A DNA stretch of 64,000 nt from Desulfomonilia bacterium (GCA_963664325.2 CAXXDQ010000003.1:672001-736000); one strand, 5' to 3'; positions 9,647 through 32,427 are shown, counted from the first letter of the stretch. The notes: generated by a model from the sequence alone, not told the origin. Translations and numbers: made by a program.

Positions 9647-9762
9647 GCTCTGGCATGTTTGGAACAATTTAGATCTAAAGAGTGTTGTACATGTAGGAGC
9701 TACTTTGATCTAAAGTGGCTCCTAACATTCAATATCAGACAAAATTATTGGGAGGGGGTATC

Positions 9763-12700: not shown

Positions 12701-13191
12701 GTGTAAGCGGTGCCACTCAGTATCAGATATACTGGGGAAACGACAGTTCGGTAAGCGAGACAAATTATGCAGGGATTCTTAACACAACTTCCACTTTATA
12801 TGACCATACCGGGCTGAGCAACGGTTATACCTATTATTATCGTATCAAGGCCTGCAACGGAGCGGGATGTAGCAATCTGTCAAGCCCAGCGGTCTATAGA
12901 AAATATGAGGTGATACCGTCTGCACCAACTGGAGTCACTGCGGTATACCAATCAGCCCATAGCTGGAACTATATCAGCTGGAATGCATGCGCAGGAGCCA
13001 CTTCATACAAGGTCTACTGGGGAACATCGCCTGGCATTACAAAGTCAAGCAGTAGCCTGACACCCACGACCACAACCGATTATGGACACTCTGGGGTGCA
13101 AAGTGGATATACATATTATTATAGAATAACGGCTTCTAACAGTGCCGGAGAGTCGGGTCTATCTAGTGAAGTAAGTGTACATGTGCCATGA
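9763..13191 (+). CDS. large lipoprotein: Ig-like, alpha/beta-hydrolase-like, thrombospondin type 3 repeat and six fibronectin type III domains
   Basis: Lipobox LSGC; VVVTHSWG nucleophile elbow; DTDGDG..DNCP..NPDQTDSDADGIGDAC; six W..(V)SGATSY.IYW..YYY.I.ACN repeats; RBS GGAGGGGG before ATG 9763. Confidence 0.85.
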   Translation: MKRSVLLLSIIIVVSILSGCIISVTPNNQKAVIVKANGIQAFTIKVFLNNSVYEWTLDGKLQEYVKGDTFKYIFTNTGITVHTLSVKVGVDKYQWVIIDAEVFQEIDSQGGVLEVTDIESNLYGSKLEVPAGVLTENDLVRMNICDAPPTLPEGLREASKFIQLEIGSSNNTLTHNNISVLGSSNEMTLTLGYNDIDNDGLIDHTGVDETQLRIGLYDNKLQSWTYAPIIQQNTTTNTVQIKLSLEQARNSIIGGFYIPLASDSQLYIYVIEGLSFDILFNLNLEGFWKTESDFPIRGEYLKSSILEMGIELSGNELKEVDVERFCWSGDFTNTPEVISKLKTELRLAYGEAIIRGKKFVVVTHSWGTVLGLLALEYNQDVKPDMIITLSSPIGSHHVTEYNSQMFWSEIPVSLVQDSIELGVQHQVQDTYTFLGTPSKQGISGFGRWTNYWHDCDIFSGPLDSDIIRWWNGYLTTTNGIFEDKEISLSIDPLPKDQTRTGEKTKKYHALTSLNQGYWMKYCPDMLAAAGAFREEVKTKIIDVVSDTDGDGYNNYIDNCPNTYNPDQTDSDADGIGDACEGVVIPSIPSGFGLNQIAGGFRLFWDSESSATEYQIYWGTSDTVDENYFSGVLKTPDTIFDHTGRVNGYTYYYRIRACNGSGCSSLSYPSISRKYEVTPSIPTGFGLTQITGGFRLTWNSVSGATSYKIYWGNDDSVNETNHAGIMETADTKYDHTNLVNGYTYYYCIKACNGAGCSNLSSPLISSKYEVTPSIPSIPTGFNLTQISGGFRLSWNSSSGATSYKIYWGNDSSVNETNYAGIMETTDTKYDHTNLVNGYTYYYCIKACNGAGCSNLSSPLIYSLYEVTPSIPTGFGLTQITGGFRLTWNSVSGATQYQIYWGNDSSVSETNYAGILNTTSTLYDHTGLSNGYTYYYRIRACNGAGCSNLSSNINRTYQTPPSIPTGFGLTQITGGFRLSWNSVSGATQYQIYWGNDSSVSETNYAGILNTTSTLYDHTGLSNGYTYYYRIKACNGAGCSNLSSPAVYRKYEVIPSAPTGVTAVYQSAHSWNYISWNACAGATSYKVYWGTSPGITKSSSSLTPTTTTDYGHSGVQSGYTYYYRITASNSAGESGLSSEVSVHVP
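11512..13188 (+). repeat. six tandem ~280-bp FN3-encoding repeats
   Basis: Units start near 11512, 11791, 12070, 12358, 12634, 12913; units 4 and 5 are nearly identical in DNA. Confidence 0.85.
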
Positions 13192-13253
13192 TAATATTCA
13201 ATAAATGGGCAAGCGTGAGTATGAAATTTCAAGATAACATGAGGAGGTTTCTT

Positions 13254-14249
13254 ATGAAAAAGGGATTACTATTTATTATTAGTTTATTTCTGCTAATTTT
13301 GAGCGGGTGCATTCTATCTAAAACACCCAACACGAATAATGTTACTATGAAAGTTGGAGAGCAGAAGACATTCAGTGTGAATGTGTTTCCACCCGGAAGT
13401 TCATATGAATGGACCTTGGATGGGTCGCCAGTTTTGGCCCCAGGTAACTCGTATACTTATACAGCTCTAGCAAGAGGGCACAGCTTGGTAGTGAGGGTCA
13501 CACATCTTTTGGGCATGAATAAGCAGGCATGGTATATCTCACAGGAAGACCCAATCACCGAATTATTGAACTCCCTTTTGTACATCCCAGCTGGCACGTT
13601 CATGATGGGGAGCACAGACTACTGGTCGACAATACCGATTCATCAAGTTACGCTCTCGGAATTTTATATGAGTGCCTATGAGGTGACTCAAGTACAATAT
13701 CAGGCAGTCATGGGTACGAACCCTTCATATTTCCAAGCGAAATATGGTTACCCAGGGAGATATAACTACCCAGTGGATTGGCTTACTTGGTATGATGCTA
13801 GTGCTTTCTGCACACAACTCTCTGCGATGACGGGGCGCACATTTACACTTCCGAGTGAAGCTCAGTGGGAATACGCCTGCAGATCTGGAACTACAACTCC
13901 ATTCAGCTTTGGTAGCGATGATGAACAACTCGATAACTATGCTTGGTACGGAGAAAACTTAGATACTGGAACCACTCATCCCGTAGGCGAAAAGCTGCCG
14001 AACGCTTGGGGGTTATATGATATGATGGGTAATGTCTGGGAGTGGTGTCTGGATTCTTGGCATGAAAATTATGTGGGTGCACCCACAGATGGTAGTGCTT
14101 GGGAACCTGATATAGGTACCTACCGCTTAACTCGTGGCGGTAGTTTTTTAAGTGAAGATTCATGGAACATGTGGTCTTCAAGTCGTAATTATTGTAACCC
14201 ATCTTGTAAAAATAATAACTTTGGTTTTCGTATCATCGAAATTCCATAG
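13254..14249 (+). CDS. lipoprotein, Ig-like + FGE-sulfatase (SUMF1/CLec-fold) domain
   Basis: Lipobox LSGC; IPAGTFMMGS, LPSEAQWEYACR, PNAWGLYDMMGNVWEW, RGGS...GFR. Confidence 0.9.
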   Translation: MKKGLLFIISLFLLILSGCILSKTPNTNNVTMKVGEQKTFSVNVFPPGSSYEWTLDGSPVLAPGNSYTYTALARGHSLVVRVTHLLGMNKQAWYISQEDPITELLNSLLYIPAGTFMMGSTDYWSTIPIHQVTLSEFYMSAYEVTQVQYQAVMGTNPSYFQAKYGYPGRYNYPVDWLTWYDASAFCTQLSAMTGRTFTLPSEAQWEYACRSGTTTPFSFGSDDEQLDNYAWYGENLDTGTTHPVGEKLPNAWGLYDMMGNVWEWCLDSWHENYVGAPTDGSAWEPDIGTYRLTRGGSFLSEDSWNMWSSSRNYCNPSCKNNNFGFRIIEIP

Positions 14250-14421
14250 GGTTAAGGAAAGGTTTTGATGGATGGCACAAGGCGTAAATTCCATGTAATC
14301 TATTTACTCATATAAGGCATTATGTTCAAAAAATTATAAAACTGACTTATTGCTTCACCTGATACAGCATACCAGAACATTCATCTATGAAAACAGGAAT
14401 TAAAAAGTTGAGGAGGGTACA

Positions 14422-16137
14422 ATGAAAATCAGAAAGCATCTTATCATCATATTGGTGATCGGGCTATTCATGACTGCTTGCGGACCCAAGGTTGTCTCGA
14501 CTGATCCTTGCAAAACATGTGAGAGCCCCTGGTACACTACAGTGAATGCGACCTTCAATCAGAACATCAACCCCGCCACTGTCAACTCCACCACATTTAA
14601 GGTTGAAAAAGATGGCAGTCCTGTTCCCGGGACAATAATGGTCAGCGGCAAGACTGTGACCTTTATGCCAACCAGTTATTTCGATGTCCCTCATCCATAT
14701 ACCGTCACACTGACAAAGGGGATCAAGAACACATCGGGCTTTGCTATGCAGAAAGATTATTCATGGCCTTTCACGACTGAGCATGGATGGAAAAACCCTA
14801 AGAACATCGATGACAACATAAGTCCCAATGGAACTGGAGCTTACCTTTTGGGACATATTGAAGGATCCGAGAGCATTGTTACGAATGAAAAAAATGATGC
14901 CATTATTACATGGAGACAAGAAGGTGGAGGATCATACGATCAGATTTTCAAGAGCGAATATCACAATGGTATTTGGACCCATCCTTCTGGCCTCTCAGAC
15001 ACGGTCAGCCCTGATGGCACCAAAGCTAGTGAGCCTCGTGTTGGCTTGGACAATGAAGGCAATGCAATAATTGTTTGGCGCCAATATGTTGGACAACCAG
15101 ATGCAAGTTCTTATCATATGTTTAAAAGGGAGCGTCATGACGGTGTTTGGGAACCTAAACCGTCATTAACAGATTATTTTGATCCAGGCATTTCTAGCGG
15201 AAATAGTTCTTTTGTCATGAGTAGCGGAGGTGATGCAGTTTTCTCCTATGGTGAAAATCTAAATGCTCCTTCTGGTCGTAGCAGATTGTTTGCGAGTGAG
15301 TATCGGGATGGAGTATGGAATCATCTTGGACCTGATGACTATATTAACCCAGATGGCCCGGATTGGACCGAAAATGGAAATATAGCAATTAATGCAAATG
15401 GTGATACGATAATAACTTGGTATCAACCGGATGCAAGTGGCATATACCAGACCTTCAAGAGTGAATACAGGAATGGTGTCTGGATACGTCCTTTGAACCT
15501 ATCTGACAACATTAGCCCTGATGGTTGGGATGTAAGTTTCCCAATGGTCGCAATAGCAGACAATGATGATGCAATCATCGTGTGGCAGCAATATGATGGG
15601 ATCAGCAATGTCAGGATATTTAAGTATGAATATCGTAGTGGGTCTTGGTCGGGTCCTACATCTATCAGTCCTGTTGGAACATCGGCCGATTTCCCCCATG
15701 TGGCAATGGATGCCAATGGCAATGCAATCATAACATGGACACAGATTGATGAGAGTGGCTATTCCCAGTGCTTCAAAAGCGAATATCGAAATGGTGTCTG
15801 GACACATCCGTCAAGTATTTCCGATCACATCAGCCTCGATGGAACAGAAGTATTTGGTACGAATGTGGCCATGGATTCAAGCGGATCAGCCATCATAACA
15901 TGGTATCAGAAATGTTATAAAGGATATATTCAGGTATTTAAGTGTGAGAAACGAAATGGGTCATGGATATGCCCAACAGGACTCTCAGATCATCTCAGTC
16001 CTGATGGATCAGACACAGTAGCACACTCATATTTTTCTCCAGTTGTTGCAATGGATGGCAAAGGTAATGCGATAATAGCATGGAGTCAGTACGACAGTGA
16101 CCATTTCTATCAGGTTTTCAAGAGCGAGTACCGGTAA
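14422..16137 (+). CDS. lipoprotein, Big_5 + repeated beta-propeller-like module
   Basis: Lipobox MTAC; Big_5-like start; repeated VAMD..G.AIITW.Q...QVFKSEYR units. Confidence 0.85.
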   Translation: MKIRKHLIIILVIGLFMTACGPKVVSTDPCKTCESPWYTTVNATFNQNINPATVNSTTFKVEKDGSPVPGTIMVSGKTVTFMPTSYFDVPHPYTVTLTKGIKNTSGFAMQKDYSWPFTTEHGWKNPKNIDDNISPNGTGAYLLGHIEGSESIVTNEKNDAIITWRQEGGGSYDQIFKSEYHNGIWTHPSGLSDTVSPDGTKASEPRVGLDNEGNAIIVWRQYVGQPDASSYHMFKRERHDGVWEPKPSLTDYFDPGISSGNSSFVMSSGGDAVFSYGENLNAPSGRSRLFASEYRDGVWNHLGPDDYINPDGPDWTENGNIAINANGDTIITWYQPDASGIYQTFKSEYRNGVWIRPLNLSDNISPDGWDVSFPMVAIADNDDAIIVWQQYDGISNVRIFKYEYRSGSWSGPTSISPVGTSADFPHVAMDANGNAIITWTQIDESGYSQCFKSEYRNGVWTHPSSISDHISLDGTEVFGTNVAMDSSGSAIITWYQKCYKGYIQVFKCEKRNGSWICPTGLSDHLSPDGSDTVAHSYFSPVVAMDGKGNAIIAWSQYDSDHFYQVFKSEYR

Positions 16138-16230
16138 AGCAGGTGGAACGAGATTGGTGAGATAACTGAATCAAGTCCTGATGATTATAGGAACAAAAAA
16201 ATAAAATTTTAAAATCAATTGGAGGGTACA

Positions 16231-17289
16231 ATGAAAAGATCATTATTATTACTTACCTTACTTTTTGTCTCACTTATATTGGGCGGCTGCATCATGTCTT
16301 CAACACCATCTTCGCCTGTGTCAGTTTCTGCAGGTGATTCGATAACATTCAAGGTCACAGTGTTTCCTGTGAATATAACTGTGCAGTGGTACGTCGATAC
16401 AAATCTGGTTTCGGGTACTACAGAAAAGTCTTTCATCTATTCTCCCGAAGAAGGTGATGTTGGCACTCACACCATAACCATAAAGGAGACCTCGGGATGC
16501 ATTTTCCTTGGTCAGCATTCTTGGGAAGTTGAGGTCATTTCTAGCATAAAGGATATCACGCAGTTCACTATTCTCGGCATAAATGGCACGATAGGGACTA
16601 ATACGATAGCCCTAACAGTACCCTATGGGACAAGCCTTACATCTTTAACACCTACGATAACTCATACAGGAGCGAGCATAAACCCAGCATCCGGAGTAGC
16701 GCAGAACTTTACAAATCCTGTACAATACACAGTTACAGCTGAAGATGGATCAATGAAGAATTATATGGTTACCGTAAGTGTTGCCCCAAATAAATCTTAT
16801 ACATTTACTGCTACTTGGACCAATAGGCCTTATAGTACAGCTACAGAAGAAGGTACTAGAGGAAATGAAGGAGATGGTGATGATTCTACTTATTGGGGAA
16901 GTTATGTATATACTAATATTGATGGGGATTTTCATAATGAGAACACTGCCCATTTAACTTATACTTATAGTACTCCTCAAATAGTTACATCTGTTCGTTT
17001 TAAGATGATTCAATATGCGTATAGTACTGGCAATAATTATGAATGGAATACATTATCGTCTTCTTTATGTTTATATGATTGGTCTGATAATTTAGTAGCT
17101 ACATTATATAGTTTTAGTAAAACAACACCCCGTGCAAATTATACAAATGATACGGGAGATTTAACTTATAATACTGGTTGGGCTAATATTAAAAGAGTAG
17201 AATTAAATATGTTTGGTGTAGCTCATGGGGATGATGGTGGAGGATCTCGTCATAGGCTTTATGAGTTAACTGTTAATACTGCTGATTGA
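16231..17289 (+). CDS. lipoprotein, Ig-like domains + unrelated AT-rich C-terminal domain
   Basis: Lipobox LGGC; KDITQF..IALTVPYGT.LTSLTPT..NFTNPVQYTVTAEDGS.K.Y.VTV Ig-like (DUF5018-like) repeat. Confidence 0.8.
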   Translation: MKRSLLLLTLLFVSLILGGCIMSSTPSSPVSVSAGDSITFKVTVFPVNITVQWYVDTNLVSGTTEKSFIYSPEEGDVGTHTITIKETSGCIFLGQHSWEVEVISSIKDITQFTILGINGTIGTNTIALTVPYGTSLTSLTPTITHTGASINPASGVAQNFTNPVQYTVTAEDGSMKNYMVTVSVAPNKSYTFTATWTNRPYSTATEEGTRGNEGDGDDSTYWGSYVYTNIDGDFHNENTAHLTYTYSTPQIVTSVRFKMIQYAYSTGNNYEWNTLSSSLCLYDWSDNLVATLYSFSKTTPRANYTNDTGDLTYNTGWANIKRVELNMFGVAHGDDGGGSRHRLYELTVNTAD

Positions 17290-17301
17290 TAGGAGGATCC
17301 A

Positions 17302-18315
17302 ATGAAGAGATCATTATCAATTCTTATTGTGCTTATTTTCATGTCTTTACTGAGCGGGTGCATATTATCCAAAACACCTAAAACAGATACCATTGATATA
17401 CAATTGGGCAAGCAGGTAACTTTCAGTGTGAATGTTTTTCCATCCAATGCTACCTATACCTGGACATTGGATGGTACGCCCCTAATGTATGTATTTGGGA
17501 AATCGTATGTGTACACTTCTACTGGGGGTAATCACAAACTTGTGGTTAAGGCGAAACAATCTTTGGGTACAGATACCCAGACATGGAATATCACCTGTGA
17601 TCCAATTGTCGGTTTATTGAACAGCCTGGTCAGTATCTCAGGTGGCACATTCATGATGGGGAGCACAGATAATGAATATTCATGGGCGAAATACACCACA
17701 CCGGTTCACGAGGTGACAGTTCCGAGTTTTGAGATCGGCGCCTATGAGATTACTCAGGCGCAATATACAGCGATCATGGGTATTAATCCTTCTTATTACC
17801 AAGAGGGACATGGCTACTCTGGCACCGAGAACTACCCGGTGGAAAATCTTACCTGGTATGAAGCAAGAGAGTTTTGCACAGCTCTCTCGGTACAGACAGG
17901 ACGGACCTTCGACTTGCCAAGTGAAGCGCAGTGGGAATATGCCTGTCGAGCAGGAACTACTACACTCTACAGCTTCGGTGATGCTGATGAACTTCTAGCC
18001 ACCTATGGCTGGTACTATGCAAACAGCAATGATGCAACCCATCCCGTAGGCACGAAACTGCCGAACCCCTGGGGCTTGTATGATATGCATGGCAACGTGT
18101 GGGAGTGGGCTCTGGATTCATGGCACTTTAACTATGATGGAGCACCAACAGATGGCAGCGCATGGGATCCTGATACTGGCCCTTACCGCATGATTCGCGG
18201 TGGCAGCTTTTTCTCCGACCATGCGGGGAGCTGCCGGTCGGCGGCTCGTGGTGTCCTCTACCCCCCCAGCTACGCGAACCGGGGTCTAGGCTTCCGCATC
18301 GTCGAAATTCCATAG
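17302..18315 (+). CDS. lipoprotein, Ig-like + FGE-sulfatase (SUMF1/CLec-fold) domain
   Basis: Paralogue of 13254-14249; GLYDMHGNVWEW, RGGS..CRSAAR..GFR. Confidence 0.9.
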   Translation: MKRSLSILIVLIFMSLLSGCILSKTPKTDTIDIQLGKQVTFSVNVFPSNATYTWTLDGTPLMYVFGKSYVYTSTGGNHKLVVKAKQSLGTDTQTWNITCDPIVGLLNSLVSISGGTFMMGSTDNEYSWAKYTTPVHEVTVPSFEIGAYEITQAQYTAIMGINPSYYQEGHGYSGTENYPVENLTWYEAREFCTALSVQTGRTFDLPSEAQWEYACRAGTTTLYSFGDADELLATYGWYYANSNDATHPVGTKLPNPWGLYDMHGNVWEWALDSWHFNYDGAPTDGSAWDPDTGPYRMIRGGSFFSDHAGSCRSAARGVLYPPSYANRGLGFRIVEIP

Positions 18316-18373: not shown

Positions 18374-18409
18374 GCTCTTAGTAATACAAGTTTAGATAGT
18401 TTCATGTAG

Positions 18410-18514
18410 AGATATCTGCGATAGATAATAGCTTTTTTGAGTTCGTAAAAGCTATGATATCCGAATGAGTTCTAATAAATCCCAAAGCTTCATCTTGGAA
18501 TGAATTTCCTCAAG
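18410..18514. repeat. dispersed degenerate repeat, copy 1
   Basis: Ungapped match to 26199-26303 (77/105 identical by manual count); begins AGATATCTGCGATA. Confidence 0.7.
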
Positions 18515-18756
18515 CAGCCAACAGCCTCTGTGCAGATGTAATTCATGTAATAAACTTAAAAATTTGCCCATTGTATTATACTGATTACATTGAATTAAAT
18601 TTAAGTTTATTAGGAGATATATGCACTTTCCTAATGAACAATTATTTGATGATGACGGCCATTATATACAGTCCGTAAATGATCATCATTACTGTGTATC
18701 TCTTTTGGAGATCATAAGATTTTCGGCCTTTAAAAATTGAATGTTTTCTCAGGAGA

Positions 18757-18813
18757 TGATAACGTAAGGATCACCAGCGGCTGAAAGCCGACTGGTGCAT
18801 CCTTTTATTCGAC
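18757..18813 (-). other. integron attC site (57 bp)
   Basis: Minus strand GTCGAAT-aaaaggatgcaccagtcggctttcagccgctggtgatccttac-GTTATCA; imperfect palindrome with an unpaired base. Confidence 0.75.
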
Positions 18814-18894
18814 ATTGTTCTCACCATTGAACTTGTTGAGTGGCTCAGATACACCATTAAGCACTTCTTGGTAAGCTAACTTCTTCCATGTTCA

Positions 18895-20061
18895 TCATCT
18901 TCTTAGGAGTCGTTTGAACTGTTTCTGGCTCAAAGGTAAAAAAGGAACAACCGATACATTAGGTCCGCACGAAACTGCAATGGACTTCGAGATCCCCGCT
19001 CCGATTCTCGCTTTCTCGGCAGCAATCACTTTGATAGCACGTGCCCCTTCTATAACATCACCACCAGCTAATATTATGGATTCGATAATCTGTGCTCCTC
19101 GTCTAATATATACACCGTCACCGATGATGGCACATTTCACTTTAACGTCCTCTTCGATCGTTACCCCATCTCCAATCAAACATGGAGGTACGAGCCTAGC
19201 GCTGTTCGCTATCTTGGCATTCCGGCCAATATGCACCTTGTTTATTTCTGGCCCTAACAATGTTGAAAAATTGCCCTTGAGAGCATTCAATTGGGCGGCG
19301 TGATAAATGCCTAAGGTGCCAATGTCTATACGGTAACCCAAGCCAATGTCAAACGCCATGCAAGTTCTGCTCGAAACGAGTCTAGGAAACAAGTTACTGG
19401 CAAAATCGATGAATCCTTCCCTAGGGATTTCAAATAGGGCCTCCCGGCTCATAATGTATACAGCTGCGTTCGCTAAGGGATTCATGTAATCGGGAATCTT
19501 TTCCAAGAGCGCCTTCTCAGTAAACATTGTTATACGTCCTTGCTGGTTCACTTCCATTACGCCGTAATTCGTGCGGGTACCACGTGGGGGATACACAGGA
19601 TCTCTATCGTGATAATCGTACAGGAATGCTGAAAAATCGGGCTGGTGGGATAGAATCGTCAAGTCAGCTGCCATAGCTTTGTGGTTTTCCATCATAGCTG
19701 AAAAGTTCGCTGATAGAAGACTGTCGCCATAGACAATCATTACAGGATCAGAAAGGGAGTCTCTGATACGAGTGGCGACATCATATGAGCACCCAGCCGT
19801 GCCGCGCCATGGAAAGTCTTCTATATACCTTATACGCAAACCCCACGCACTCCCATCTTTATATCGTGATTTCACTTCATCATGCCGTCCTGACGAAGTG
19901 AAAACAACATCCTCAATGCCTTGGGAGCTTAGTTCCTTAAGCAAGTAGTCGAATAGTGGTCGCCCGAGGAATGGAACCATACATTTGACTATGTTCTCTG
20001 AAAGTGGCAGCATTCGGCTCGCTGTCCCTCCATTTAATAAGATTACTGTGATATCCTTCAT
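18895..20061 (-). CDS. sugar-phosphate nucleotidyltransferase (mannose-1-P guanylyltransferase-like, with hexapeptide LbH domain)
   Basis: VILLNGGTASRMLPLS..KCMVPFLGRP, GTAG, VYGD, FTEK, NAAVY, DIGT; C-terminal IGDGV repeats; start placed at ATG 20061. Confidence 0.85.
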   Translation of the reverse strand: MKDITVILLNGGTASRMLPLSENIVKCMVPFLGRPLFDYLLKELSSQGIEDVVFTSSGRHDEVKSRYKDGSAWGLRIRYIEDFPWRGTAGCSYDVATRIRDSLSDPVMIVYGDSLLSANFSAMMENHKAMAADLTILSHQPDFSAFLYDYHDRDPVYPPRGTRTNYGVMEVNQQGRITMFTEKALLEKIPDYMNPLANAAVYIMSREALFEIPREGFIDFASNLFPRLVSSRTCMAFDIGLGYRIDIGTLGIYHAAQLNALKGNFSTLLGPEINKVHIGRNAKIANSARLVPPCLIGDGVTIEEDVKVKCAIIGDGVYIRRGAQIIESIILAGGDVIEGARAIKVIAAEKARIGAGISKSIAVSCGPNVSVVPFLPLSQKQFKRLLRR

Positions 20062-20074
20062 TATAGATATTTCT

Positions 20075-22327
20075 TCAAACCCAGAAAGGCTCATCGGGAG
20101 TACCTTTTGTTGCCCACTCTTCAGCTAGGCGATAAGAAGAAAACTTCCTAAAAACCTCGAACAAGGCGTTCATATACAGATTCTGATGAAAATGCCTAGT
20201 GCAGTAACCACAAGCTTCTCTATCCACTGGCAATGGCCGCCTTTGAAATGCCTTATGATCCTCGCCAAACCAGATATTCTCCAACTCATTACCAGCTTTT
20301 GGGTCAACAGCAGTTCCGGCTGAATGTCGAAGGGATCCCATTTTGTATCTCTCCCTCAACTTCGATTCGCAGAAATTGTCGTCGAATAAAAAGCAGCATG
20401 GATAAACATCTCCATTGGCAGTGATTTTACACGTTAACCTGAGAGCCATACACGTGTAATCAGCCCGCCTGAGATCATGTAGCCGTTTGTTTACGGGTTC
20501 GCCTTTAGCCAAGCCTGAATAGTCGAAAATATTGTTATTTATCATCGTCTCCAAATATTTGAAATCAAAGCGGCTATTCAGACCTTGCAACGATACTCCT
20601 TCTCTTATCACTTTTCTCAACTCCATCTCGTTACACAGAAAACTTCGCCCCTGTTGATCAGGGCCATGTGCTATTTTGAATCTGACACTGTATTCTTTGG
20701 CGGTGAGCCATTCTGCTATGGCGAGAAAGTTCTCCTTGCCATTCAACAATTCTTTCACATTGTCTTTTTGAATTGTGTAGCACACTTCAACATTCTTAAA
20801 CTTGGCTTTTTCAAAAGACATGATCGTTGCTTTCACATAGTCTAACGAACCATTTTTCCTTATATCCCTGTAGATATCATCCGTGAAGGCATCAAGTGAT
20901 AATTGGACCCAGCTGCACGAGTTGGCAATTCCTTCTGCTTCCGCGATATTGATGCCACGGACTTCGCCATTTTTTTCCGGGTCCTGACGTATGCCATTAG
21001 TCAGCAGACCTATTTTTAAATCACATTGTTTTTTAGCGTAACGAAGAATATGCAAGATATCTGGCCTGGCAAGCGGCTCACCTCCGGATATTATCAATGC
21101 TCTTGTTTGCAGTTTCTTAATGCTATCCAGAATCCTTTCTATTTCCACCGTCTCTAACTCTTCGTCTGGATTATAGAGTGCATGGTGATTGCACATCTTA
21201 CAAGTGGTTGTACATCTATTGGTGACCAAGAATTGAATACAAGCGGGTCTGACTTTTGTTGATTTCCATGGTGGTAAGCCAAATTCAGATACGAATATGT
21301 TGGCCGCATAGGCATTTAGCGCTTCTGCTGTGTTGTTTCTCGTTATTGAGTGGAGGGGATAGTTCTCCAATTTGATTGTAGCGATATCATTCTCTGCCTC
21401 CTGCTTTTTCTTGTCATATTCCTTTATCGGATCGGCCATAAATTTGATCCTTGTGATATCGTCTCGAAATGGTTTAAAGTGATGGTCAAAACTCCTAGGA
21501 GCCAAGCGGCGTCTCTGAAAAACCAACATGGGTTTTGATAGGCCGCTCTTCGGATCTTCAAAAACGGTTCGAAGGTCCAAATGGAATCTCTCATCACGAT
21601 GATCCAACTTAAGATGGAGCATTCCGTTTCTGATCTGTCCCGGATAAACACTTAATTCTAGTTTTTCCAGGTCATTTGGTTGGTGGCTTTTCTTTTTACC
21701 TTCTTGCAACATAGTATTCGATTGGTTAATCTCCTCCAAGAATGTACGACGTATCTCCTTAAAATTACCAATCGCTTCTTCAATCTGGATGCTGAGCTTC
21801 TTGACCGCCTTAATGGCTTCTTCGTTTTCACTCTCGCCACCTTTCAACGGATTCAGGTCCAATACCGGCTCATATGGGTTTTGAATTACAAAATGAAGGC
21901 AACTCCCATGACGCAGTGCCGCTAGGATTTTATTGGACAGATCTCGCCGGCCAATTTCATACGATTCCATGTCGTGGTTGAAATAGAATTCATTCCCACA
22001 GAGCCAAGAAAAACAAGAACGACCTACAATCGTCAATTCGCCTTTACGTGTGGTAATCTCATCCAGTGTTTGCATTGGCCCGTAGCGAATCGGTACGCTG
22101 CTACGGTTTGGGTAGTACTTGACGGTCGGAGTTATGAAGTCTTCAGCATTGGCAACCAATATAACAACCAGCGATACTATAACAGTTAGAATTAAACTTG
22201 TGCCAATTAGTAACCAACCTCTTAACGGTGTAGTTATGCCAATTATAGTTATGATAAGAGTAAATAAGGTTAAAACACTTGGTGGAATTAACCACATTGA
22301 CTTTATGTATTTCTTCATATTTTGCAT
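20075..22327 (-). CDS. membrane-anchored radical SAM/SPASM-like protein with N-terminal 2 TM helices and DUF5919/PLD-like domain
   Basis: CTTTCKMC (CxxxCxxC), ISGGEP, LLTNG, QLSLD; C-terminal C..GDVYPCC..CGYC; two N-terminal hydrophobic helices. Confidence 0.85.
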   Translation of the reverse strand: MQNMKKYIKSMWLIPPSVLTLFTLIITIIGITTPLRGWLLIGTSLILTVIVSLVVILVANAEDFITPTVKYYPNRSSVPIRYGPMQTLDEITTRKGELTIVGRSCFSWLCGNEFYFNHDMESYEIGRRDLSNKILAALRHGSCLHFVIQNPYEPVLDLNPLKGGESENEEAIKAVKKLSIQIEEAIGNFKEIRRTFLEEINQSNTMLQEGKKKSHQPNDLEKLELSVYPGQIRNGMLHLKLDHRDERFHLDLRTVFEDPKSGLSKPMLVFQRRRLAPRSFDHHFKPFRDDITRIKFMADPIKEYDKKKQEAENDIATIKLENYPLHSITRNNTAEALNAYAANIFVSEFGLPPWKSTKVRPACIQFLVTNRCTTTCKMCNHHALYNPDEELETVEIERILDSIKKLQTRALIISGGEPLARPDILHILRYAKKQCDLKIGLLTNGIRQDPEKNGEVRGINIAEAEGIANSCSWVQLSLDAFTDDIYRDIRKNGSLDYVKATIMSFEKAKFKNVEVCYTIQKDNVKELLNGKENFLAIAEWLTAKEYSVRFKIAHGPDQQGRSFLCNEMELRKVIREGVSLQGLNSRFDFKYLETMINNNIFDYSGLAKGEPVNKRLHDLRRADYTCMALRLTCKITANGDVYPCCFLFDDNFCESKLRERYKMGSLRHSAGTAVDPKAGNELENIWFGEDHKAFQRRPLPVDREACGYCTRHFHQNLYMNALFEVFRKFSSYRLAEEWATKGTPDEPFWV

Positions 22328-22371
22328 GTGATCTCTCCTTCACATGGGATAGCTCTCTTTTTGCACTTTCC

Positions 22372-22425
22372 GTCCATCAGGCATCACCGGCGGCTGAAAG
22401 CCTCCGGTGCATCCTTTTGTTATAC
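22372..22425 (-). other. integron attC site (54 bp; R' degenerate)
   Basis: GTATAAC-aaaaggatgcaccggaggctttcagccgccggtgatgcct-GATGGAC; R'' overlaps the stop codon; same family as the 18757 site. Confidence 0.75.
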
Positions 22426-23103
22426 ATCTTTTACTGGTGGTTTTCCAATTCTCGATAGCTTCAAGTTCAAAGATTTCTTACGTTCATCAAGCCTTTTAGG
22501 CTGGACAAAAACAAAATCAAACAAAGAATCTAAGACTTCAAGAAGCCACTCTGCTTCACCGTTTTCAACATCTACAATTTCACCAGTGGAGACATCTTTT
22601 TCCGGATGAGCTGCAAAATTACCGATGGTTCTAATTGCGTCAATCGCTTCAGCTAAGTAAGATGGAGTTGTTTTGTTTTTCAAGAAGTCATCAATTTCTT
22701 TAGCGAGACTTGATTTCTTTATTTTTATTTCCTCCCTCAAAATACATTGCAAGAGTCTCCGACTTATAGCAGCACTTGCTTTTGGGCTTAGATTTAGTAC
22801 AGCAACAGCCTCTAAAAAATCATTCTTATAAATTTCTGGTACTTCTGGTTGGACAGGACGAATAGCCATTTTGGGGTAAAGAATTTCCTCGGAAGACACT
22901 GATGTTAGACTTTCACCGTATTTATCTTTTTTATATTCTCCTTCTTCTAAGATTACAATAAGCTCCTCGCATAATGGACAAAAACCATGGGTTACAGCAA
23001 AGCCACTACCTTTCGGTTCTTCCTCTTTATTTAAAGAATGGTACACAGCGCTATCAGGACTTTCAAAATGGATCCCCTTACCACAATGCGGACAAATATT
23101 CAT
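22420..23103 (-). CDS. DUF4145 domain protein with N-terminal Zn ribbon (cassette)
   Basis: CPHC..CPLC; EA..VL..SPKASA...RR.LQ, IRTIGNFAAH. Confidence 0.85.
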   Translation of the reverse strand: MNICPHCGKGIHFESPDSAVYHSLNKEEEPKGSGFAVTHGFCPLCEELIVILEEGEYKKDKYGESLTSVSSEEILYPKMAIRPVQPEVPEIYKNDFLEAVAVLNLSPKASAAISRRLLQCILREEIKIKKSSLAKEIDDFLKNKTTPSYLAEAIDAIRTIGNFAAHPEKDVSTGEIVDVENGEAEWLLEVLDSLFDFVFVQPKRLDERKKSLNLKLSRIGKPPVKDV

Positions 23104-23115
23104 TATTCATCTCCT

Positions 23116-23179
23116 GCATAACGCTGCGGCTCTGCAGCCGCGGCGCGCTTTCGCGGTCTGCAGCAGCCGCTTGTTAGCT
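23116..23179 (-). other. integron attC site (64 bp)
   Basis: AGCTAAC-aagcggctgctgcagaccgcgaaagcgcgccgcggctgcagagccgcagc-GTTATGC. Confidence 0.9.
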
Positions 23180-23196
23180 GATACTCGATAAAAACC

Positions 23197-23796: not shown

Positions 23797-23806
23797 TTAC
23801 CTGGAC

Positions 23807-23930
23807 AGCTAACGCTTGGCATCAGCGGCGGTTTACGTTTGCTACGTAGTAGCAACGTGGCATTTTGTTTGCTCTTTTTCTGCAAACAAAATGCCACGAG
23901 TAAGCCGTCCGTTGCATGCCGTTGTTAGCC
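23807..23930 (-). other. integron attC site (124 bp, long type)
   Basis: GGCTAAC...cgtggcattttgtttgc-loop-gcaaacaaaatgccacg...GTTAGCT. Confidence 0.9.
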
Positions 23931-23933
23931 TCT

Positions 23934-25843
23934 CTAGTATTTGCGGAGATATTTCATATCACGTATAGCATCTTTTAAGAACTCTGCGAAATCATCTCTC
24001 TGAATCAGAGCGCGTCGCACCTTCGAGCCGGTTATAGGCACAATTAAAGGGCTCGACGCATTTCCTGCTTGATTGCGGAGTGTGCGTATTGCATCTTCCG
24101 TGAAACCGCTTCCAGACACGAAGAACGCCAATTGAATGCCGCGGACTTGTGCAACCTTGTGGGCAAAGCTCCCAACTTCCTCCAGCGGAACGTCGGTGTT
24201 CCAGTTCTTACATTCCACCAATACTTCACCTCCGTAATCAGCCCAAAACGGTTCACTTTTCTTCATCTCTAGTACAAGGTCTATTTCGCCGTTTTCCGTA
24301 TTGTAATCACGCCTGACAATTGAGAAACACTGACCGAAGAACCTAGAAGAAAACTCCTCAAACAGCCTGCCTTTGTCATGTGATGCCAGCCCCGCATCGC
24401 CAGTGCGTTCAAGGAGGGCGAGAAGGTCGTCGTAGACGTCGACGGGCTCACGATCACTTAGGCTTCTATTCGCGGAGTCGATCAGTTGTGAGACGAAACC
24501 TTCGCCAACTTCGTGGATGAAGCTAGAGATCACATATTGAGTAAGGCGCCTATTTCGTGTTCTTCCGTGCGAGGACACATTTTGCCGCTAGCAGTATTTG
24601 GCGCTTCTCCACAGCAGCCTCAATGATAGGCCCGACGTCTGGAAGGAGACCGCATGCCATGACTACGAACATTATGGAGATCGAAGCGATCGACCATGCC
24701 GACGACTCTAGCCGGTTCGCTGCTGACAGCACGGGCGGAGTAGTACTCAAGGAACGTAAGGTGTATGAAGCAAACCTGGTTTGGGGAAATCTCAAGGAGA
24801 ATCCCTGTGGTAAGCAACTCGTCAAGGAATTGCTCGTCAGCATCTCTACGTTCCCCGTGAGCCTCAAGGAAATCGCCGAGCATGCCTCTAATTTCCGCCC
24901 GCGAGGCAGAGTTCTGAGCCCGCACAATCAGAAGTTCATAGCCTATCTGTTCCAGTGCGCTTTGCTTCGCGCGTAAGGAAATGCTTACTCTGGATACGCC
25001 CTTTGCTCGTTCCCATGTGGAGAGGAGAAAGTCTGTACAATCGGCATAAAGGGAGGTCAGATTATCCGGCAACATCCCTCTTGATCGAAACACCTGCCAT
25101 AGGAGGTGTAAGAGCAGCGGGTTAGAGGCGAGGGCATATAGGGTAAGGTGAGATTGGATTGCCTGGAGAAACCTATCGGCATATTCCGGCTGTTCCGCGG
25201 ACAGTCTACGTGACAACGCTCGGATGGATCCGATATCAAAGGGTTCAAGGTGGAAATAGACGAAGCCACGAATTGGCGAGGAAAGCCCGGAAGGACGCGA
25301 GGAAGCAAGCACTTTCAAGTCTGGATGGGCATGTCCAAGAGAACCCAACTCATTCACGAAGTGGTAGCGACGGGCTGAGTCAACTTCGTCGATCCCATCA
25401 ATAACTATGACAAAGCGATTGTCGCGGAGAAGAGAGCGCACCTGATCTGCTTGGTCGTCCTTTCCGATGCGCTGACAGACAATCTGGCCAAGCCGGTCCA
25501 CTAAAGTGTCCCCGCTCGCAAGTGAAGCAACATCAGGGGCACGAAAGAAGAGAGGACACGGTGCGAACTTCGTATCTTTCAAAAAGGCTTGTGCGAGAGT
25601 CACCGCGTAGAATTTTAGGAGGGTGGTCTTCCCAGCTCCCGGAGGACCCAGGATTGTCAGTCTCATGTGTTTGTCAATCGTCTGCCGTGAACCAAATAGC
25701 TCGCCGGTGGCATCTGCAACCTGTGGCTCGACAAAGAGCTTGTCGATATCTTGGCGAGTCGGACCTGCAACCGGCACTAGGTAGTCCAGGTACCCCAAGT
25801 CATGCAAAGCGAATTCGGCGATTCTTTTGAGTAATGACTTCAT
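23934..25843 (-). pseudogene. NACHT NTPase fused to a C-terminal Mrr-like PD-(D/E)xK restriction endonuclease, interrupted by two +1 frameshifts
   Basis: GPPGAGKTT, IVIDGIDEV, SSRP, NPLLL, FIHLTFLEYYSA; KGRLFE..GEIDLV..VECKNW. Removing one base near 24667 and one near 24573 joins three ORFs into 635 aa. Confidence 0.75.
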
Positions 25844-25856
25844 GTAATTCCCGAAA

Positions 25857-25890
25857 GGCTAACAATTAATATACGTAATATATGTTTATG
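25857..25890 (-). other. attI-like site / first cassette boundary
   Basis: GTTAGCC core exactly complements R'' (GGCTAAC) of this cassette's attC; upstream DNA is AT-rich and is not an attC hairpin. Confidence 0.55.
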
Positions 25891-26198
25891 CTGTTTTCAA
25901 ACAGCCCCCTTGGGTTAATGGTTAAATATTTACAATAACGTTCTAATTAAATCAAATATTTATAATTTAATGATTATGTATTTAGTACGTATTACCATTA
26001 AAAGCGTAATACGTATTATCAGTGGTATTTGGTTTATTCTTAGATTGGGCCTGCATAGTAAGCCCAACAAATCAATGTTGGATTTCACGTCTAATAACAT
26101 TCAACTCAAACTGCATATATGCCCGCAAGACCATTACTGTCCAGCGATTATGCAAAAATATACAGTGCTACAATACATCAATGCTCCTGCCAGACTAT

Positions 26199-26303
26199 AG
26201 ATATCTGCGATAAATGAGTGCTCTTCTGAACTCGAAAAAGTTATAATATCCAAATGATATAGAATGAATCTCCCGCACTCTTCTTGGGATGAAGATCCTC
26301 AAG
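26199..26303. repeat. dispersed degenerate repeat, copy 2
   Basis: Matches 18410-18514; a shorter third copy starts at 31857. Confidence 0.7.
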
Positions 26304-27724: not shown

Positions 27725-28266
27725 TTGTACTCCCTTATACTTAACTAATAATTATATTACATATAATGCCTTATAGATTACCTTCCGGGGGAAAGGTCAC
27801 ATTCAAGAAACTTATTACTCCGACGATTATCTTATATCGCAGATTGTTAATTCTATTTCATTGTCTAATTTGTAATCCAAACAACTTGACTTTCAGTATG
27901 GTGAAATTATTATATCTATGTATAATTATTCAGCACACATTTTCACAGTGCTATTTGAAATGCCGAAGTAGTATCTATTGATTGATTTTCATGTAGTTCT
28001 CCATACACCAAAACACATCTTGAGTCAGAGAATTAAGACCAAAATTAAGGAATAGAAATCAGCATTCGAGTAGTTCTCCGTACCGTTGAGGAAGACTACT
28101 AAGAATCAACAAAAGAGGAAACAATTATGGCCAGAATTCATAAAAACATAGATAATAAGGCCTTTTTCAATAAGGTTTATGATTATCTAAAAAATATTTG
28201 CTCAAGTAATTTAACAGTCAAAGAACAAATCAATAAGTTCAAAGTAAGTTATTGATAGGAGGTTAT

Positions 28267-30462
28267 ATGGGTTCACTCGAAGAAGGAAATGAATATCATA
28301 CTCTTTCAGTAAAGGATCTTCTCGAGGCACGGGATGCATATCATGTTTTTCTTATGAGGAAAAAAAACGTTATTGGAACAGCAATCGGTTTATATCGTGT
28401 TTGCAAGGATAAAACAAAGCCCAGAACACTTAAGAACTCTGAAGTACGCAGCGGTTACTCATGGCCATGTGTGCTGGTGTTTGTAGAGGGATGGGTTCAA
28501 AAAAAGAGCTTTGGTAAGGCTCAAAAAGCATCATATAATGATTATATACCAAAATCTCTCTATCTCCCGGATGGTCGGGAAATCCCTGTGTGCGTTATAC
28601 TGTCAGAGTGGGGACAAAAAAATCCGGAAACAATTCTGAAGATGAAGTTTCCAGGAAATGTGATTGGCGGCGGTTATCCTATCATGACAAAAGTGCAAGG
28701 AGAAGAACGCTGGGCAACCCTGGGATGCCTAGTCAGTGATGGTAGGCTCACTTATGGATTGACTAACGCACATGTAACAGGTCAACCAGGCGAAAGCCTG
28801 TATACGATAATCAATGGCAATGAAGAAGAGATTGGTAAATCATCATCAAAAAACCTCAAGAAGATACCTTTTACTCAAGTTTATGAGAGCCTGCCTGGTA
28901 AACATGCATTGGTAAACCTTGATATCGGCCTGATCGAACTGAACGACATAAACAATGTCACATCGCAGATATTCGGATTAGGAAAGGTAATGGGTCTACT
29001 TGATGTTAATCATGACACATTGTCCCTTAAGCTCATTGGTTGTCCAGTAATGGGATTTGGATGTTCATCTGGTCTTATGAAAGGGGAGATTATTGCCCTT
29101 TTCTATAGGTATGAAACTGCGGGAGGATATGATTACATAGCAGACTACCTGATCGGTCCACGAAGTGAAAAAATCATGGTTGGTAAGTCATCCTTTAGCC
29201 CTAGGAAGGGTGACTCTGGGACCTTGCTGGTGATAGACAAACCTAAAAGTTCTGAACATATGAAGGCCATAGGTGTTCTGTGGGGTGGACAAAAAGATAT
29301 CACTAATGAATCCGAACAGCCTTATGGTTTAGCGACAAACCTTGGGACTATATGCAAGAATATGGACATTGAGCTTGTGTCTAGCTGGAACTCAAACTAT
29401 GACACTTTTTTTGGTGCATATGCCCACATAACATTGCCAGGAATGTGTCTCAAAGTGATCAAAGATAAAAAGTTGAAAACGCTTATGGAGAACAATGCTG
29501 ATCGATTCAGCTTGCCACTTGAAGAGACTGCTGTGAACGATACTAAGGGATTGAGCAAGAAGCATTTTGTTCCATTGTCCGATGTTCCAGACTTAGTATG
29601 GAAGAGTAGAGGTGGAGAATTCCAGCGGAGCAAGGAAGGGCCGAACCATTTTGCAGACATGGATCAGCCCAATCCATCAGTTGGCGGCAAGACCCTTCTT
29701 GATATATGTGAAAATGTTAAAAATATTGATCCCGATGTGTGGGTGAACTTCTATAAAGAGTTAAAGGCCAAAGACATGGGAGCATTGCCGTTCAGGATAG
29801 CACAAATATATGACGCACTTGTTAAGTTTGCCAGGCAGGGACATGTAACTAATTTCATCTGCGCAGCTGGCATACTGTCTCATTATGTTTTTGATTCATG
29901 TATGCCACTCCACATCAGCTATATGCACCATGGGGATCCTGACGGGCCAAAAGATAGTAGTAACAAATCAATTTCGTACAATGTACATGCCGAATTCGAT
30001 AACCAGATGGTTGAATACTACGTTGAAACACTCAGGAATAACCTGGATAATTATGTGAAGGAAAAAGATGATGTAGGTGAACCAGTAAAACGAGGGAGCA
30101 TAAAAACAACAAAAGATGCAGCTAGAGCAGCTGTGACATTGATGTATAACACAGTGAATAAATATGCGAACCCTAAGAACATAGTGAAGGATTATGAGAA
30201 ACTGGTTGATGAGAATAAACGTGCACGCTGTGCCCAGTTGTGGGATAAATATGGGGAAGGAATGCAGCACGCAATGGCAGAGGCCGTTGTACTGACAGCC
30301 CGATTGTGGGAAGCTGCTTGGGACAATGGAAATGGGAAAAACAACATCCACAATACAGATTCCATTCCTGAAGACGACCTGAAAAAACTCTATGAGACAA
30401 AGACAGGATTTCTTGACTCAGTTAGACTCTCAGAGATCAAGGGTACTATGACATGGACATAG
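28267..30462 (+). CDS. Nal1-like trypsin-fold serine protease fused to an S1/P1 nuclease / Zn-phospholipase C domain
   Basis: TNAHV / NLDIG / GDSG triad; FGAYAH, DVPD, NHFADMD, SHYVFDSCMPLH, VHAEFD Zn ligands; RBS AGGAGG before ATG 28267; no signal peptide. Confidence 0.8.
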   Translation: MGSLEEGNEYHTLSVKDLLEARDAYHVFLMRKKNVIGTAIGLYRVCKDKTKPRTLKNSEVRSGYSWPCVLVFVEGWVQKKSFGKAQKASYNDYIPKSLYLPDGREIPVCVILSEWGQKNPETILKMKFPGNVIGGGYPIMTKVQGEERWATLGCLVSDGRLTYGLTNAHVTGQPGESLYTIINGNEEEIGKSSSKNLKKIPFTQVYESLPGKHALVNLDIGLIELNDINNVTSQIFGLGKVMGLLDVNHDTLSLKLIGCPVMGFGCSSGLMKGEIIALFYRYETAGGYDYIADYLIGPRSEKIMVGKSSFSPRKGDSGTLLVIDKPKSSEHMKAIGVLWGGQKDITNESEQPYGLATNLGTICKNMDIELVSSWNSNYDTFFGAYAHITLPGMCLKVIKDKKLKTLMENNADRFSLPLEETAVNDTKGLSKKHFVPLSDVPDLVWKSRGGEFQRSKEGPNHFADMDQPNPSVGGKTLLDICENVKNIDPDVWVNFYKELKAKDMGALPFRIAQIYDALVKFARQGHVTNFICAAGILSHYVFDSCMPLHISYMHHGDPDGPKDSSNKSISYNVHAEFDNQMVEYYVETLRNNLDNYVKEKDDVGEPVKRGSIKTTKDAARAAVTLMYNTVNKYANPKNIVKDYEKLVDENKRARCAQLWDKYGEGMQHAMAEAVVLTARLWEAAWDNGNGKNNIHNTDSIPEDDLKKLYETKTGFLDSVRLSEIKGTMTWT

Positions 30463-30530: not shown

Positions 30531-30761
30531 CTGTTAATTATACATCGGAGCAAGGCTTACTACCTATCTTTAAGAAATGAATATCTCCAATTGTCAGCAG
30601 ATTGAATATCACTACGATGAATGAGAACTTTTACTGCACCCGGATAAATTATGATTTTCTCAAGATATATGAACTTTTTATGAGGCCGATAAATGATAAC
30701 TATTGTGCCTCTATATTCAGTTTTTAAAGGAGAATCTTTTTGTAAATATAACTTTTGCAGA

Positions 30762-30824
30762 TGATAACGGTCACGCTCAGCCGCTTGTGAAGCGAAGCAA
30801 ATCGGCTAGAATGCTGTGTTGGGC
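30762..30824 (-). other. integron attC-like site (63 bp)
   Basis: GCCCAAC-acagcattctagccgatttgcttcgcttcacaagcggctgagcgtgacc-GTTATCA. Confidence 0.7.
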
Positions 30825-30885
30825 TGCTTTTGTTGTTATGAAAGTACATTCCATTGGTGGGCCATTCCCACTTCATTTACACACT

Positions 30886-31473: not shown

Positions 31474-32037
31474 AGTTTACCTTGTCAAGATATAACAGCT
31501 TTTCAGATACTGGCCCACCCAACTATCAATTGGTAGAAATTCTATGCACAACATTCATTTTTTATTTCTTACATTAAAAACTGAAAGAAATATGAAAGTC
31601 AAGCTTGTTATTATAGTGAAACTTCTTAATATTACATAAAATCAGTGAATAGTCCGGTATATAAATATTTAATGAACATTATCTTTCTTCAATATAACAA
31701 TGAAGTTCTATTATTTGAATTTTATAAAGGATATAAAAATCGATTTGCCGAAAAGTTTCCATATCATTGTAACGATTTGTTATGATTACATTTGAAGATC
31801 ATAACAACCTGGTTATAGTTATGAAGTATTAGTTATCTCTATTCATATTAAAGCTTAGATATCTGCGATATATATTCATTTTTGATATGCATGAAAAAGC
31901 GATGATATTATTCTGATATGTTCATAGGCTCAAGCATCAATGACTTTAGTGAAAGGGAACGTTCCCACAGAAACATCCAGAACATCATCATAGACCCGAC
32001 TAGGCCTAATTGTTTATCAGGTTTACTTTGAATTTAA

Positions 32038-32356: not shown

Positions 32357-32427
32357 ATGGAGAAAAAACAAGATTAAGGGTTAAAGATGGAATGCTATTA
32401 TAACCTATATAATAGCGATTTAACAAG

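Follow-up and report, generated by a model that had tools for sequence, protein, structure and literature searches.

Results and Discussion

Two adjacent genes in a Desulfomonilia genome

The locus described here lies in a 64,000-nucleotide stretch of DNA (the window) from a Desulfomonilia bacterium (GCA_963664325.2, CAXXDQ010000003.1:672001-736000), and consists of two consecutive genes, which we refer to as A and B. Protein A combines two N-terminal transmembrane (TM) helices, a domain with a phospholipase D (PLD) fold lacking the HKD motif, a radical S-adenosylmethionine (SAM) core and a partial SPASM region. Both open reading frames (ORFs), with A of 750 residues and a nucleoside diphosphate (NDP)-sugar pyrophosphorylase-like enzyme closely following it, were confirmed as described in an earlier prediction made by a model from the DNA alone (the original prediction), which took the pair for a candidate chemical defence system. 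Read from its first ATG, B shares 20 nt with the end of A, and its second ATG (M12), which coincides with the starts of homologues, is found 13 nt past the A stop codon; A and B are tightly coupled whichever start is used. In relatives of A, the two TM helices are exchanged for TIR, helix-turn-helix (HTH) or EAD-like modules, and the proposed defence or conflict role gains support from this exchange.

Domain composition and predicted structure of protein A

The Pfam search identified the radical SAM domain (PF04055) in A with 1.6e-19 and 71.1 bits, against a cut-off of 29.5, and both the CxxxCxxC motif (C372/C376/C379) and the GGEP motif at residues 415-418 are invariant in all 25 aligned members of the family. 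Further downstream, SPASM (PF13186) was matched with 8.6e-7 and 29.6 bits (cut-off 21.5), with its motif only partly kept. A full SPASM domain has the seven-cysteine motif CX9-15GX4C...CX2CX5CX3C...C and holds two auxiliary clusters; in the 25-member alignment, only C626...G639xxxxC644/C645 and C706xxC709 are conserved, which would be enough for one auxiliary cluster, in a twitch-like arrangement. NCBIfam gave sub-threshold matches only (mycofactocin maturase, AhbD, NirJ, MoaA, Tes, viperin and HxsC), and the Pfam searches detected neither a recognition element for peptides made by the ribosome and modified after translation (RiPPs), known as RRE or PqqD domain, anywhere in A, nor any domain in residues 1-360.

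An AlphaFold2 model of A built from the 25-member alignment reached a predicted local distance difference test score (pLDDT) of 86.3 and a predicted template modelling score (pTM) of 0.82. Foldseek with the whole chain returned radical SAM enzymes only, namely CteB, SkfB, SuiB, anSME, BlsE, MoaA, PqqE, viperins and DesII. As these matches covered only the radical SAM half, the N-terminal domain (residues 62-355) was folded separately (pLDDT 83, pTM 0.81), and it then matched PLD-superfamily folds only, with E values from 8e-5 to 7e-3: FAM83 pseudo-PLD, TrmBL2, Streptomyces PLD, Nuc, PssA and vaccinia F13. One of 19 members, the window's own A, has an HxK(x)4D string, and the positions of this string are not conserved in the family, so that the domain does not belong to the catalytic PLD enzymes and its description as PLD-like without HKD is confirmed. 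It has instead a conserved polar set of its own (R103, T104, W108, Q149, N234/S235, D251, K265/P266, S327 and R330), and a sequence-profile search of the PDB with this domain gave no match. When two copies of the PLD-like domain were predicted as a complex, the score was 0.24 (mark 0.42).

Overall, Pfam, AlphaFold2 and Foldseek agree on the order of domains originally read in A, including the SPASM/twitch-like cysteines. The likeness to DUF5919 (PF19319) was not confirmed: none of 19 N-domains matched it at E<=1 in Pfam and the Atlas lead (0.76) is below noise level. The view of A as a membrane sensor also became unlikely: about 6 residues, read off the sequence, separate the two TM helices, which suggests a hairpin that enters from and returns to the cytoplasm, and hence an anchor or a membrane-active (effector) element rather than a periplasmic sensor.

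A small family with exchangeable N-terminal modules

A word-indexed search of 5.8 billion proteins recovered 30 full-length-type homologues of A beyond the window's own (E<=6e-66), nearly all in clusters of one or few sequences and at best 56% identical. With a profile of the PLD-like domain, 68 proteins were found among 1.84 billion representatives, and CxxxCxxC lies downstream of this domain in 45 of the 46 members of at least 600 aa. The radical SAM half, used alone as the query, led to the same family, the first outsiders having 26-29% identity. Since the searches with either half return one family, the PLD-like and radical SAM halves are always fused, in a unit that other architectures do not share. 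The carriers that could be named, all metagenome-assembled genomes (MAGs), belong to Desulfobacteraceae, Bacteroidales, Smithella, Methylococcaceae, Treponema, Holophagales and Lentisphaerae, a patchy and cross-phylum distribution.

The N-terminal TM helices are present in 34 of the 46 full-length members and absent from the remaining 12. In their place, three proteins carry a firm TIR_2 domain (P0083, 8e-16; P0094, 6e-13; P0091, 8e-13), and another has an equally firm TIR domain of the CAP12/Pycsar effector type (P0090; PF10137, 6e-28). A weaker TIR match was obtained for P0089 (0.007), P0070 has an XRE-type HTH (HTH_3, 3e-9), and P0079 matches EAD8 weakly (4e-4). Five others have N-terminal extensions with no significant Pfam match (P0025, P0060, P0076, P0088 and P0092). 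According to BLAST, three of these unexplained extensions resemble the N-terminus of P0089, and that of P0060 resembles the one of P0092; such extensions may be additional modules, TIR-like or of the effector type. In the extensions of TM-less members, nothing emerged beyond weak hints of DUF4062 (0.07) and of nucleoside deoxyribosyltransferase (0.26). P0025 (1116 aa), with its 470-aa N-terminal extension, was also considered as a possible fusion of A and B, and rejected.

The TM-less members keep every signature residue of both the PLD-like and the radical SAM domains, which indicates that they have the same core behind a different N-terminal module. Effectors of the Pycsar, CBASS and Thoeris type show such a pattern, in which TM and TIR modules replace each other while the region they are joined to stays constant. 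Because the replacement of TM helices by modules of this kind (TIR, HTH or EAD-like) is characteristic of proteins of immunity or conflict, A is a plausible new anti-phage or conflict protein. In the available text of one analysis of conflict systems (PMC7159879), EAD8-type domains are described as recruiting effectors in such systems. In our assessment, the swapping of N-terminal modules is the strongest argument for a conflict role, and one that is independent of the neighbourhood found in the window.

Gene B and its linkage to A

Protein B belongs to NTP_transferase (PF00483; 2e-26, 93.5 bits against a cut-off of 21.2), with Hexapep/LbH matches in addition, and is thereby predicted to have a sugar-1-phosphate nucleotidyltransferase fold with a C-terminal left-handed beta-helix. 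In alignments, GGTASR, K, YGD, EK and DIGT are kept at the positions of the usual catalytic motifs of the fold, and we assume that these residues have the corresponding catalytic roles in B. The best equivalog, mannose-1-phosphate guanylyltransferase (NF052502), was matched with 149.5 bits, below its cut-off of 440. Fifteen rare proteins, with 34-61% identity and a distinctive N-terminal signature, are the nearest relatives of B. In a quick, unrooted FastTree analysis of a hand-picked sample, these 15 and five A-linked B proteins split from 21 generic guanylyltransferases with a branch support of 99. As its nearest relatives are rare and separated from the generic enzymes, B appears to represent a dedicated lineage rather than a stray housekeeping gene.

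When the ORFs within 6 kb of A were clustered over 25 loci, B was the only recurrent neighbour, adjoining A in six of them (the window, L004, L006, L010, L011 and L022) and in both gene orders. At L022 (3499-5810), the homologues of A and B are both truncated and an inverted C-terminal piece of A is found next to B. This arrangement reflects either decay of the locus or a chimeric assembly. The B-bearing loci are scattered over the star-like A tree (a quick tree), in which one clade of 10 members has no B locus. Elsewhere, the neighbours of A include DUF3786, PilZ, Big_2, ClpB, nucleoside hydrolase, HisF, PEMT-like and PD-(D/E)XK transposase genes, together with unknowns. No glycosyltransferase, flippase or exporter recurs beside A in the 25 loci, and the neighbourhood survey did not place the homologues in lipopolysaccharide, capsule or secondary-metabolite clusters. 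Moreover, none of 200 candidate peptides within 700 nt of A, at 19 loci, shared a cluster with another; the original remark that no peptide substrate lies nearby thus holds, as no conserved precursor flanks A at these loci.

A further relation was found in two viral contigs of about 57-61 kb, L033 (3870-13147) and L034, where a radical SAM/SPASM gene is found in a stand-alone form, with 25% identity to residues 361-726 of A. The viral gene clusters with DUF6625, an FkbM methyltransferase, a CTP_transf_3 cytidylyltransferase and a class I methyltransferase, in what looks like a phage-encoded pathway of sugar-nucleotide modification. If so read, the viral cluster is a second, independent tie of the radical SAM lineage of A to nucleotide-activated sugar chemistry.

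Genomic setting of the pair

In the window, the A/B pair is part of a four-site attC-type array and stands beside defence-like cassettes (Table 1). The two hairpins that flank it are related to each other, with one compensatory change in the stem, have DNA fold z-scores of -3.5 (upstream of A) and -5.7 (downstream of B), and are the sole copies in the 4.3-Mb genome assembly. Further genes of the array are an unannotated 199-aa ORF and, further up, a DUF2971/PDC-S31-like gene. Three other candidate attC regions (30755-30850, 25850-25935 and 27725-27860) were dropped since they folded no better than shuffles, the loose core-site regular expression used for attC not being specific.

Table 1. Features of protein A and of its surroundings in the window (nucleotides counted from the first letter of the window; residues from the start of A).
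Feature	Position	Strand	Remarks
Gene A	20075-22327	minus	750 aa; ORF call, Pfam, AlphaFold2, Foldseek
A, two N-terminal TM helices	residues about 18-32 and 38-65 (N-terminal TM region about 13-60)		AlphaFold2 model
A, HKD-less PLD-fold domain	residues about 62-355		
A, radical SAM core	residues 368-519		CxxxCxxC at 372-379
A, partial SPASM / single auxiliary-cluster region	residues 626-709		
Gene B	18895-20094	minus	399 aa (388 aa from M12, position 20061); ORF call, Pfam
attC-like hairpin downstream of B	18750-18815	minus	GTTATC core on 3' side, 5' core degenerate
attC-like hairpin upstream of A	22360-22425	minus	3' end of DUF4145 cassette; ATAAC core on 5' side, 3' core degenerate
DUF4145 cassette gene	22420-23103	minus	matches PADLOC model PD-T7-4 (9e-16)
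Canonical-looking attC	23104-23196	minus	CTAAC...GTTAT imperfect palindrome, after 199-aa ORF cassette
Canonical-looking attC	23797-23933	minus	CTAAC...GTTAG, about 120 nt, fold z -7.7, after NACHT + Mrr_cat pair
Mrr_cat nuclease-fold protein	23934-24578	minus	paired with NACHT gene
NACHT NTPase	24620-25843	minus	paired with Mrr_cat gene
tRNA-Leu(taa)	32427-32512		island boundary
93%-identical partial copy of tRNA-Leu 3' part	720-790		other island boundary
P4-type tyrosine integrase; primase-polymerase/DUF3987 helicase	945-2171; 2731-5196		inside island

The whole array is inside an island of about 31.7 kb bounded by the tRNA gene and its partial copy. Gene A is single-copy in its genome, and it was not found in 60 related genomes, three of the same genus included. 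In sequencing data, the array was recovered in low-depth contigs of the probable source sample and as exact 151-nt pieces in one other study; neither excision joints nor variants of the array were present in those data. Two preprints, as far as their available text goes, report that integron cassettes encode anti-phage systems, and the term 'radical SAM' is absent from the main text of one of them and from that of a 2026 cassette-screen preprint.

Other features of the window were also recorded. Three copies of a repeat (about 108 nt, 73% identity), which share the exact core AGATATCTGCGATA, are present on the plus strand (18407-18514, 26196-26303 and 31857-31883), each within a long spacer that is poor in ORFs and separates genes of the minus-strand array; the four matches observed for this repeat at no more than two mismatches were reached by none of 100 shuffles. 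A run of lipoprotein genes (8084-18315, plus strand), convergent with gene B, has near-identical signal-peptide starts at 8073, 16220 and 17291, and includes a Big_5 domain, many 'NGNAI..W' repeats and paralogous FGE-sulfatase-domain proteins at 13188-14249 and 17302-18315. Inside the island and just past the array, a plus-strand gene (28252-30462) encodes a 736-aa protein with Nal1_C (protease-like) and a weak match to zinc phospholipase C.

Proposed function and evidence against it

Taking these results together, we propose that the pair constitutes a mobile cassette of the integron type, which encodes a rare conflict protein, most likely anti-phage, with B as an optional helper, a reading to which we would assign a probability of roughly 0.4. 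Protein A would act through an exchangeable N-terminal module, which is a two-helix membrane hairpin here and a TIR, XRE HTH or effector-associated-type domain in relatives, the hairpin either anchoring the protein or acting on the membrane. The non-catalytic PLD-fold domain, with its conserved polar pocket, may serve in ligand binding or assembly, and would constitute one functional core with the radical SAM domain and its single auxiliary iron-sulfur cluster. As substrate of this core we infer a small molecule linked to a nucleotide, probably an NDP-sugar; the structural neighbours of the core in Foldseek include the nucleotide or NDP-sugar enzymes BlsE, DesII, MoaA and viperins. Where present, in about half of the lineages, B would make the substrate from a sugar-1-phosphate and a nucleoside triphosphate, while elsewhere the host pool would supply it. 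The product, or the reaction itself, could limit phage replication directly, following a viperin-like logic; alternatively, it could switch on the N-terminal module, with membrane damage as the outcome here and cleavage of nicotinamide adenine dinucleotide (NAD+) in the TIR forms. Of this scheme, the data themselves show the architecture of A, its rarity, the exchange of modules, the cassette setting and the separate lineage of B; the defence role, the class of substrate and the mode of activation are deduced.

Several observations weigh against this proposal. Among the distinct loci with both flanks readable, B is present in 6 of 12, the readable loci without it being L001, L002, L003, L005, L014 (= L016) and L017; loci whose sequence ends too soon on one or both sides of A are left out of this count. 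In three genomes without an adjacent B, no match to B was obtained at E<=1e-10 and a fourth had a partial generic match, the genomes searched being MAGs of unstated completeness. The pair is thus not generally conserved, and an obligate two-gene pathway is not supported: as B is missing from half of the readable loci and from those genomes, A can stand alone as an autonomous core, and a substrate of the NDP-sugar type is not required by the data. In addition, the tree that sets B apart has the limits of sampling and rooting given above, and the EAD8 match of P0079 is weak (4e-4) and below the Pfam cut-off.

The neighbours of the homologues are mostly housekeeping or unannotated genes, and PADLOC gave 10 singleton model matches at E<=1e-8 on 76 neighbours, mostly to candidate (PDC) families, which, being counted per model and not per protein, correspond to at most 10 defence-like neighbours. 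The proposed defence setting therefore stands for the window, where defence-like cassettes adjoin the pair, but not for the homologues, whose neighbourhoods are mixed and do not amount to clear defence islands. Each of the hairpins flanking A and B has one recognisable attC core, the other being degenerate, and no integron integrase was found in the genome at the curated cut-off (the best, TIGR02249, reached 84 bits against 265, in an assembly 95.6% complete), so that the array is a short cluster of the CALIN type (attC sites with no integrase), not a complete integron. The placement of the pair between attC sites accordingly survives in part, through the related flanking hairpins and their canonical neighbours. 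Moreover, no specific model of PADLOC-DB v2.0 matched either protein, A giving only generic matches to pVip (4e-12) and NsnC (0.004) and B none, and the top structural matches of A are peptide-modifying SPASM enzymes (CteB, SkfB, SuiB and anSME), which match at least as well as the nucleotide enzymes.

Alternative explanations

Among other explanations, the one that survives best, which we nevertheless consider unlikely, is a role in modification of the envelope or of lipids and glycans, in which a membrane-anchored A would bind a phospholipid or a lipid-linked head group through its PLD-like domain and B would supply the activated sugar. The product would alter membrane lipids or surface glycans; such an accessory trait might or might not bear on the adsorption of phages, and A would then not be an immune protein acting inside the cell. 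Two TM helices joined to a PLD fold do recall membrane phospholipid enzymes, PssA and bacterial PLDs being among the fold matches, and two synthases of tetraether lipids, Tes and GDGT-MAS, are found among the radical SAM matches. Moreover, B is of a classical glycan-precursor enzyme type, a gene resembling PMT_2-type glycosyltransferases follows B at one locus (L010), and the viral relative of the radical SAM half is found in a sugar-modification cluster. However, a membrane-bound function is difficult to reconcile with the 12 of 46 full-length members that are TM-less and whose identical core bears soluble modules (TIR, HTH or others). The HKD catalytic motif is also missing, no glycosyltransferase, flippase or exporter is recurrent beside A, and the window neighbours are defence-like cassettes rather than envelope genes.

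A doubtful explanation, ranking behind the previous one, is that A is a maturase, modifying a peptide (by a RiPP-type cross-link) or a protein effector, with B either unrelated or acting on the same target. The best structural and profile matches of A are indeed CteB, SkfB, SuiB, anSME, PqqE and the mycofactocin maturase, and the available text of two sources describes radical SAM/SPASM maturases in conflict systems (PMC7159879) and in the HXS anti-phage system (PMC13128918). Against it stand the absence of any cluster shared among the 200 candidate peptides of the 19 loci, the position of B as sole recurrent neighbour, the failure to detect RRE/PqqD in A, and the fact that only the first half of the SPASM motif and the CxxC are kept.

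We judge it just as doubtful that the radical SAM/PLD core is a sensor, recognising a metabolite perturbed by the phage (SAM or a nucleotide sugar) and triggering killing by the TM or TIR module in an abortive infection. In Pycsar and CBASS effectors, the constant part senses a ligand, and A has a comparable layout, with TM and TIR modules, including one of the Pycsar/CAP12 type, preceding a region that stays constant. The fold matches of the PLD-like domain include TrmBL2, and in TrmB-family regulators the corresponding domain binds sugars; the HTH-fused member likewise resembles a ligand-controlled regulator. However, the catalytic radical SAM features are strictly conserved, which suggests real turnover and not mere binding, and the weak EAD8 fusion points to the core as an effector. 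The EAD8 hint and the conserved catalytic residues thus favour an effector core and the Pycsar-like layout a sensor core, and the data cannot tell which applies. Least probable of all is that radical SAM chemistry is itself the infection switch, the enzyme either converting or not converting a metabolite that the phage disturbs (SAM, or the nucleotide sugar that B produces), the PLD-like domain reading this out and the N-terminal module killing the cell, which, if true, would make A the first radical-SAM-gated abortive-infection protein, contained in a single integron cassette.

Returning to the proposed anti-phage or conflict role, radical SAM enzymes have to our knowledge appeared in antiviral defence in few forms so far, namely viperins and the recent Ophion and HXS. 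In the A family, a radical SAM enzyme with an auxiliary cluster is combined with a PLD fold that lacks HKD, with TM or TIR modules that can be exchanged and, in some cases, with a sugar-nucleotide synthase of its own; if defensive, the family would bring a new enzymatic logic into bacterial immunity, and modified nucleotides or nucleotide sugars could be obtained from it as a new source. Integron-borne defence would also be extended to a large two-gene cassette, in apparently mostly anaerobic lineages, and with 68 representatives the family is small enough for a complete survey.

Comparison with known systems

Full texts of the literature, supplementary tables (e.g., the candidate lists of the modularity-network preprint) lying outside this search, described neither a protein joining TIR or TM modules to PLD-like and radical SAM domains nor a defence pair of a radical SAM enzyme and a sugar nucleotidyltransferase. 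The prokaryotic viperins (pVips) are, like A, radical SAM proteins, with an antiviral role and a nucleotide substrate. A matches the PADLOC pVip model (4e-12), while viperin_w_prok is matched in the radical SAM core only (9e-10), with 38.2 bits against a cut-off of 180. A differs from viperins in its auxiliary-cluster (SPASM-type) C-terminus, its PLD fold and its TM or TIR module, and its partner is a sugar-1-phosphate nucleotidyltransferase instead of a kinase.

Ophion (bioRxiv 10.1101/2025.09.30.679545), which consists of the radical SAM protein OpnA with PHP and PRTase proteins, is a validated anti-phage system whose partners in nucleotide metabolism recall the theme of A and B. As described in the available text, it is set apart by having three genes and other partner folds, and no fusion to PLD-like, TM or TIR modules is mentioned there. 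HXS, composed of the maturases HxsB and HxsC and the effector HxsA (PMC13128918), also brings radical SAM/SPASM-type enzymes into phage defence according to its available text, in which a separate effector with HxS repeats is matured, whereas neither a partner nor a peptide of that kind is conserved next to A; the match of A to the HxsC profile is weak (1e-10, against a cut-off of 268 bits).

As for enzymes of biosynthesis, DesII, BlsE and MoaA are among the structural matches of A (8hzv, 7vob and 1tv7/2fb2) and act on nucleotide-linked substrates, which fits the link to a nucleotidyltransferase. However, identity in the fold alignments is 12-18%, peptide-modifying SPASM enzymes match as well or better, and these three enzymes, unlike A, are encoded in biosynthetic clusters, with no PLD-like, TM or TIR module fused to them. 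For residues 62-355 of A, the best fold matches are the DUF1669 domain of FAM83 and the effector domain of the TrmB family (4urj, 5bpd), in which HKD is likewise missing; sequence similarity to these HKD-less folds was not detected (Pfam, none of 19 members; no PDB profile match), and the domain of A has its own conserved residues.

Finally, the TM and TIR effectors of Pycsar and CBASS carry a cyclic-nucleotide-binding domain in the place of the PLD fold and radical SAM core of A, and no cyclase or CD-NTase is linked to A. What these effectors have in common with the A family is the layout itself, with an interchangeable N-terminal two-TM or TIR module in front of a constant C-terminal region.

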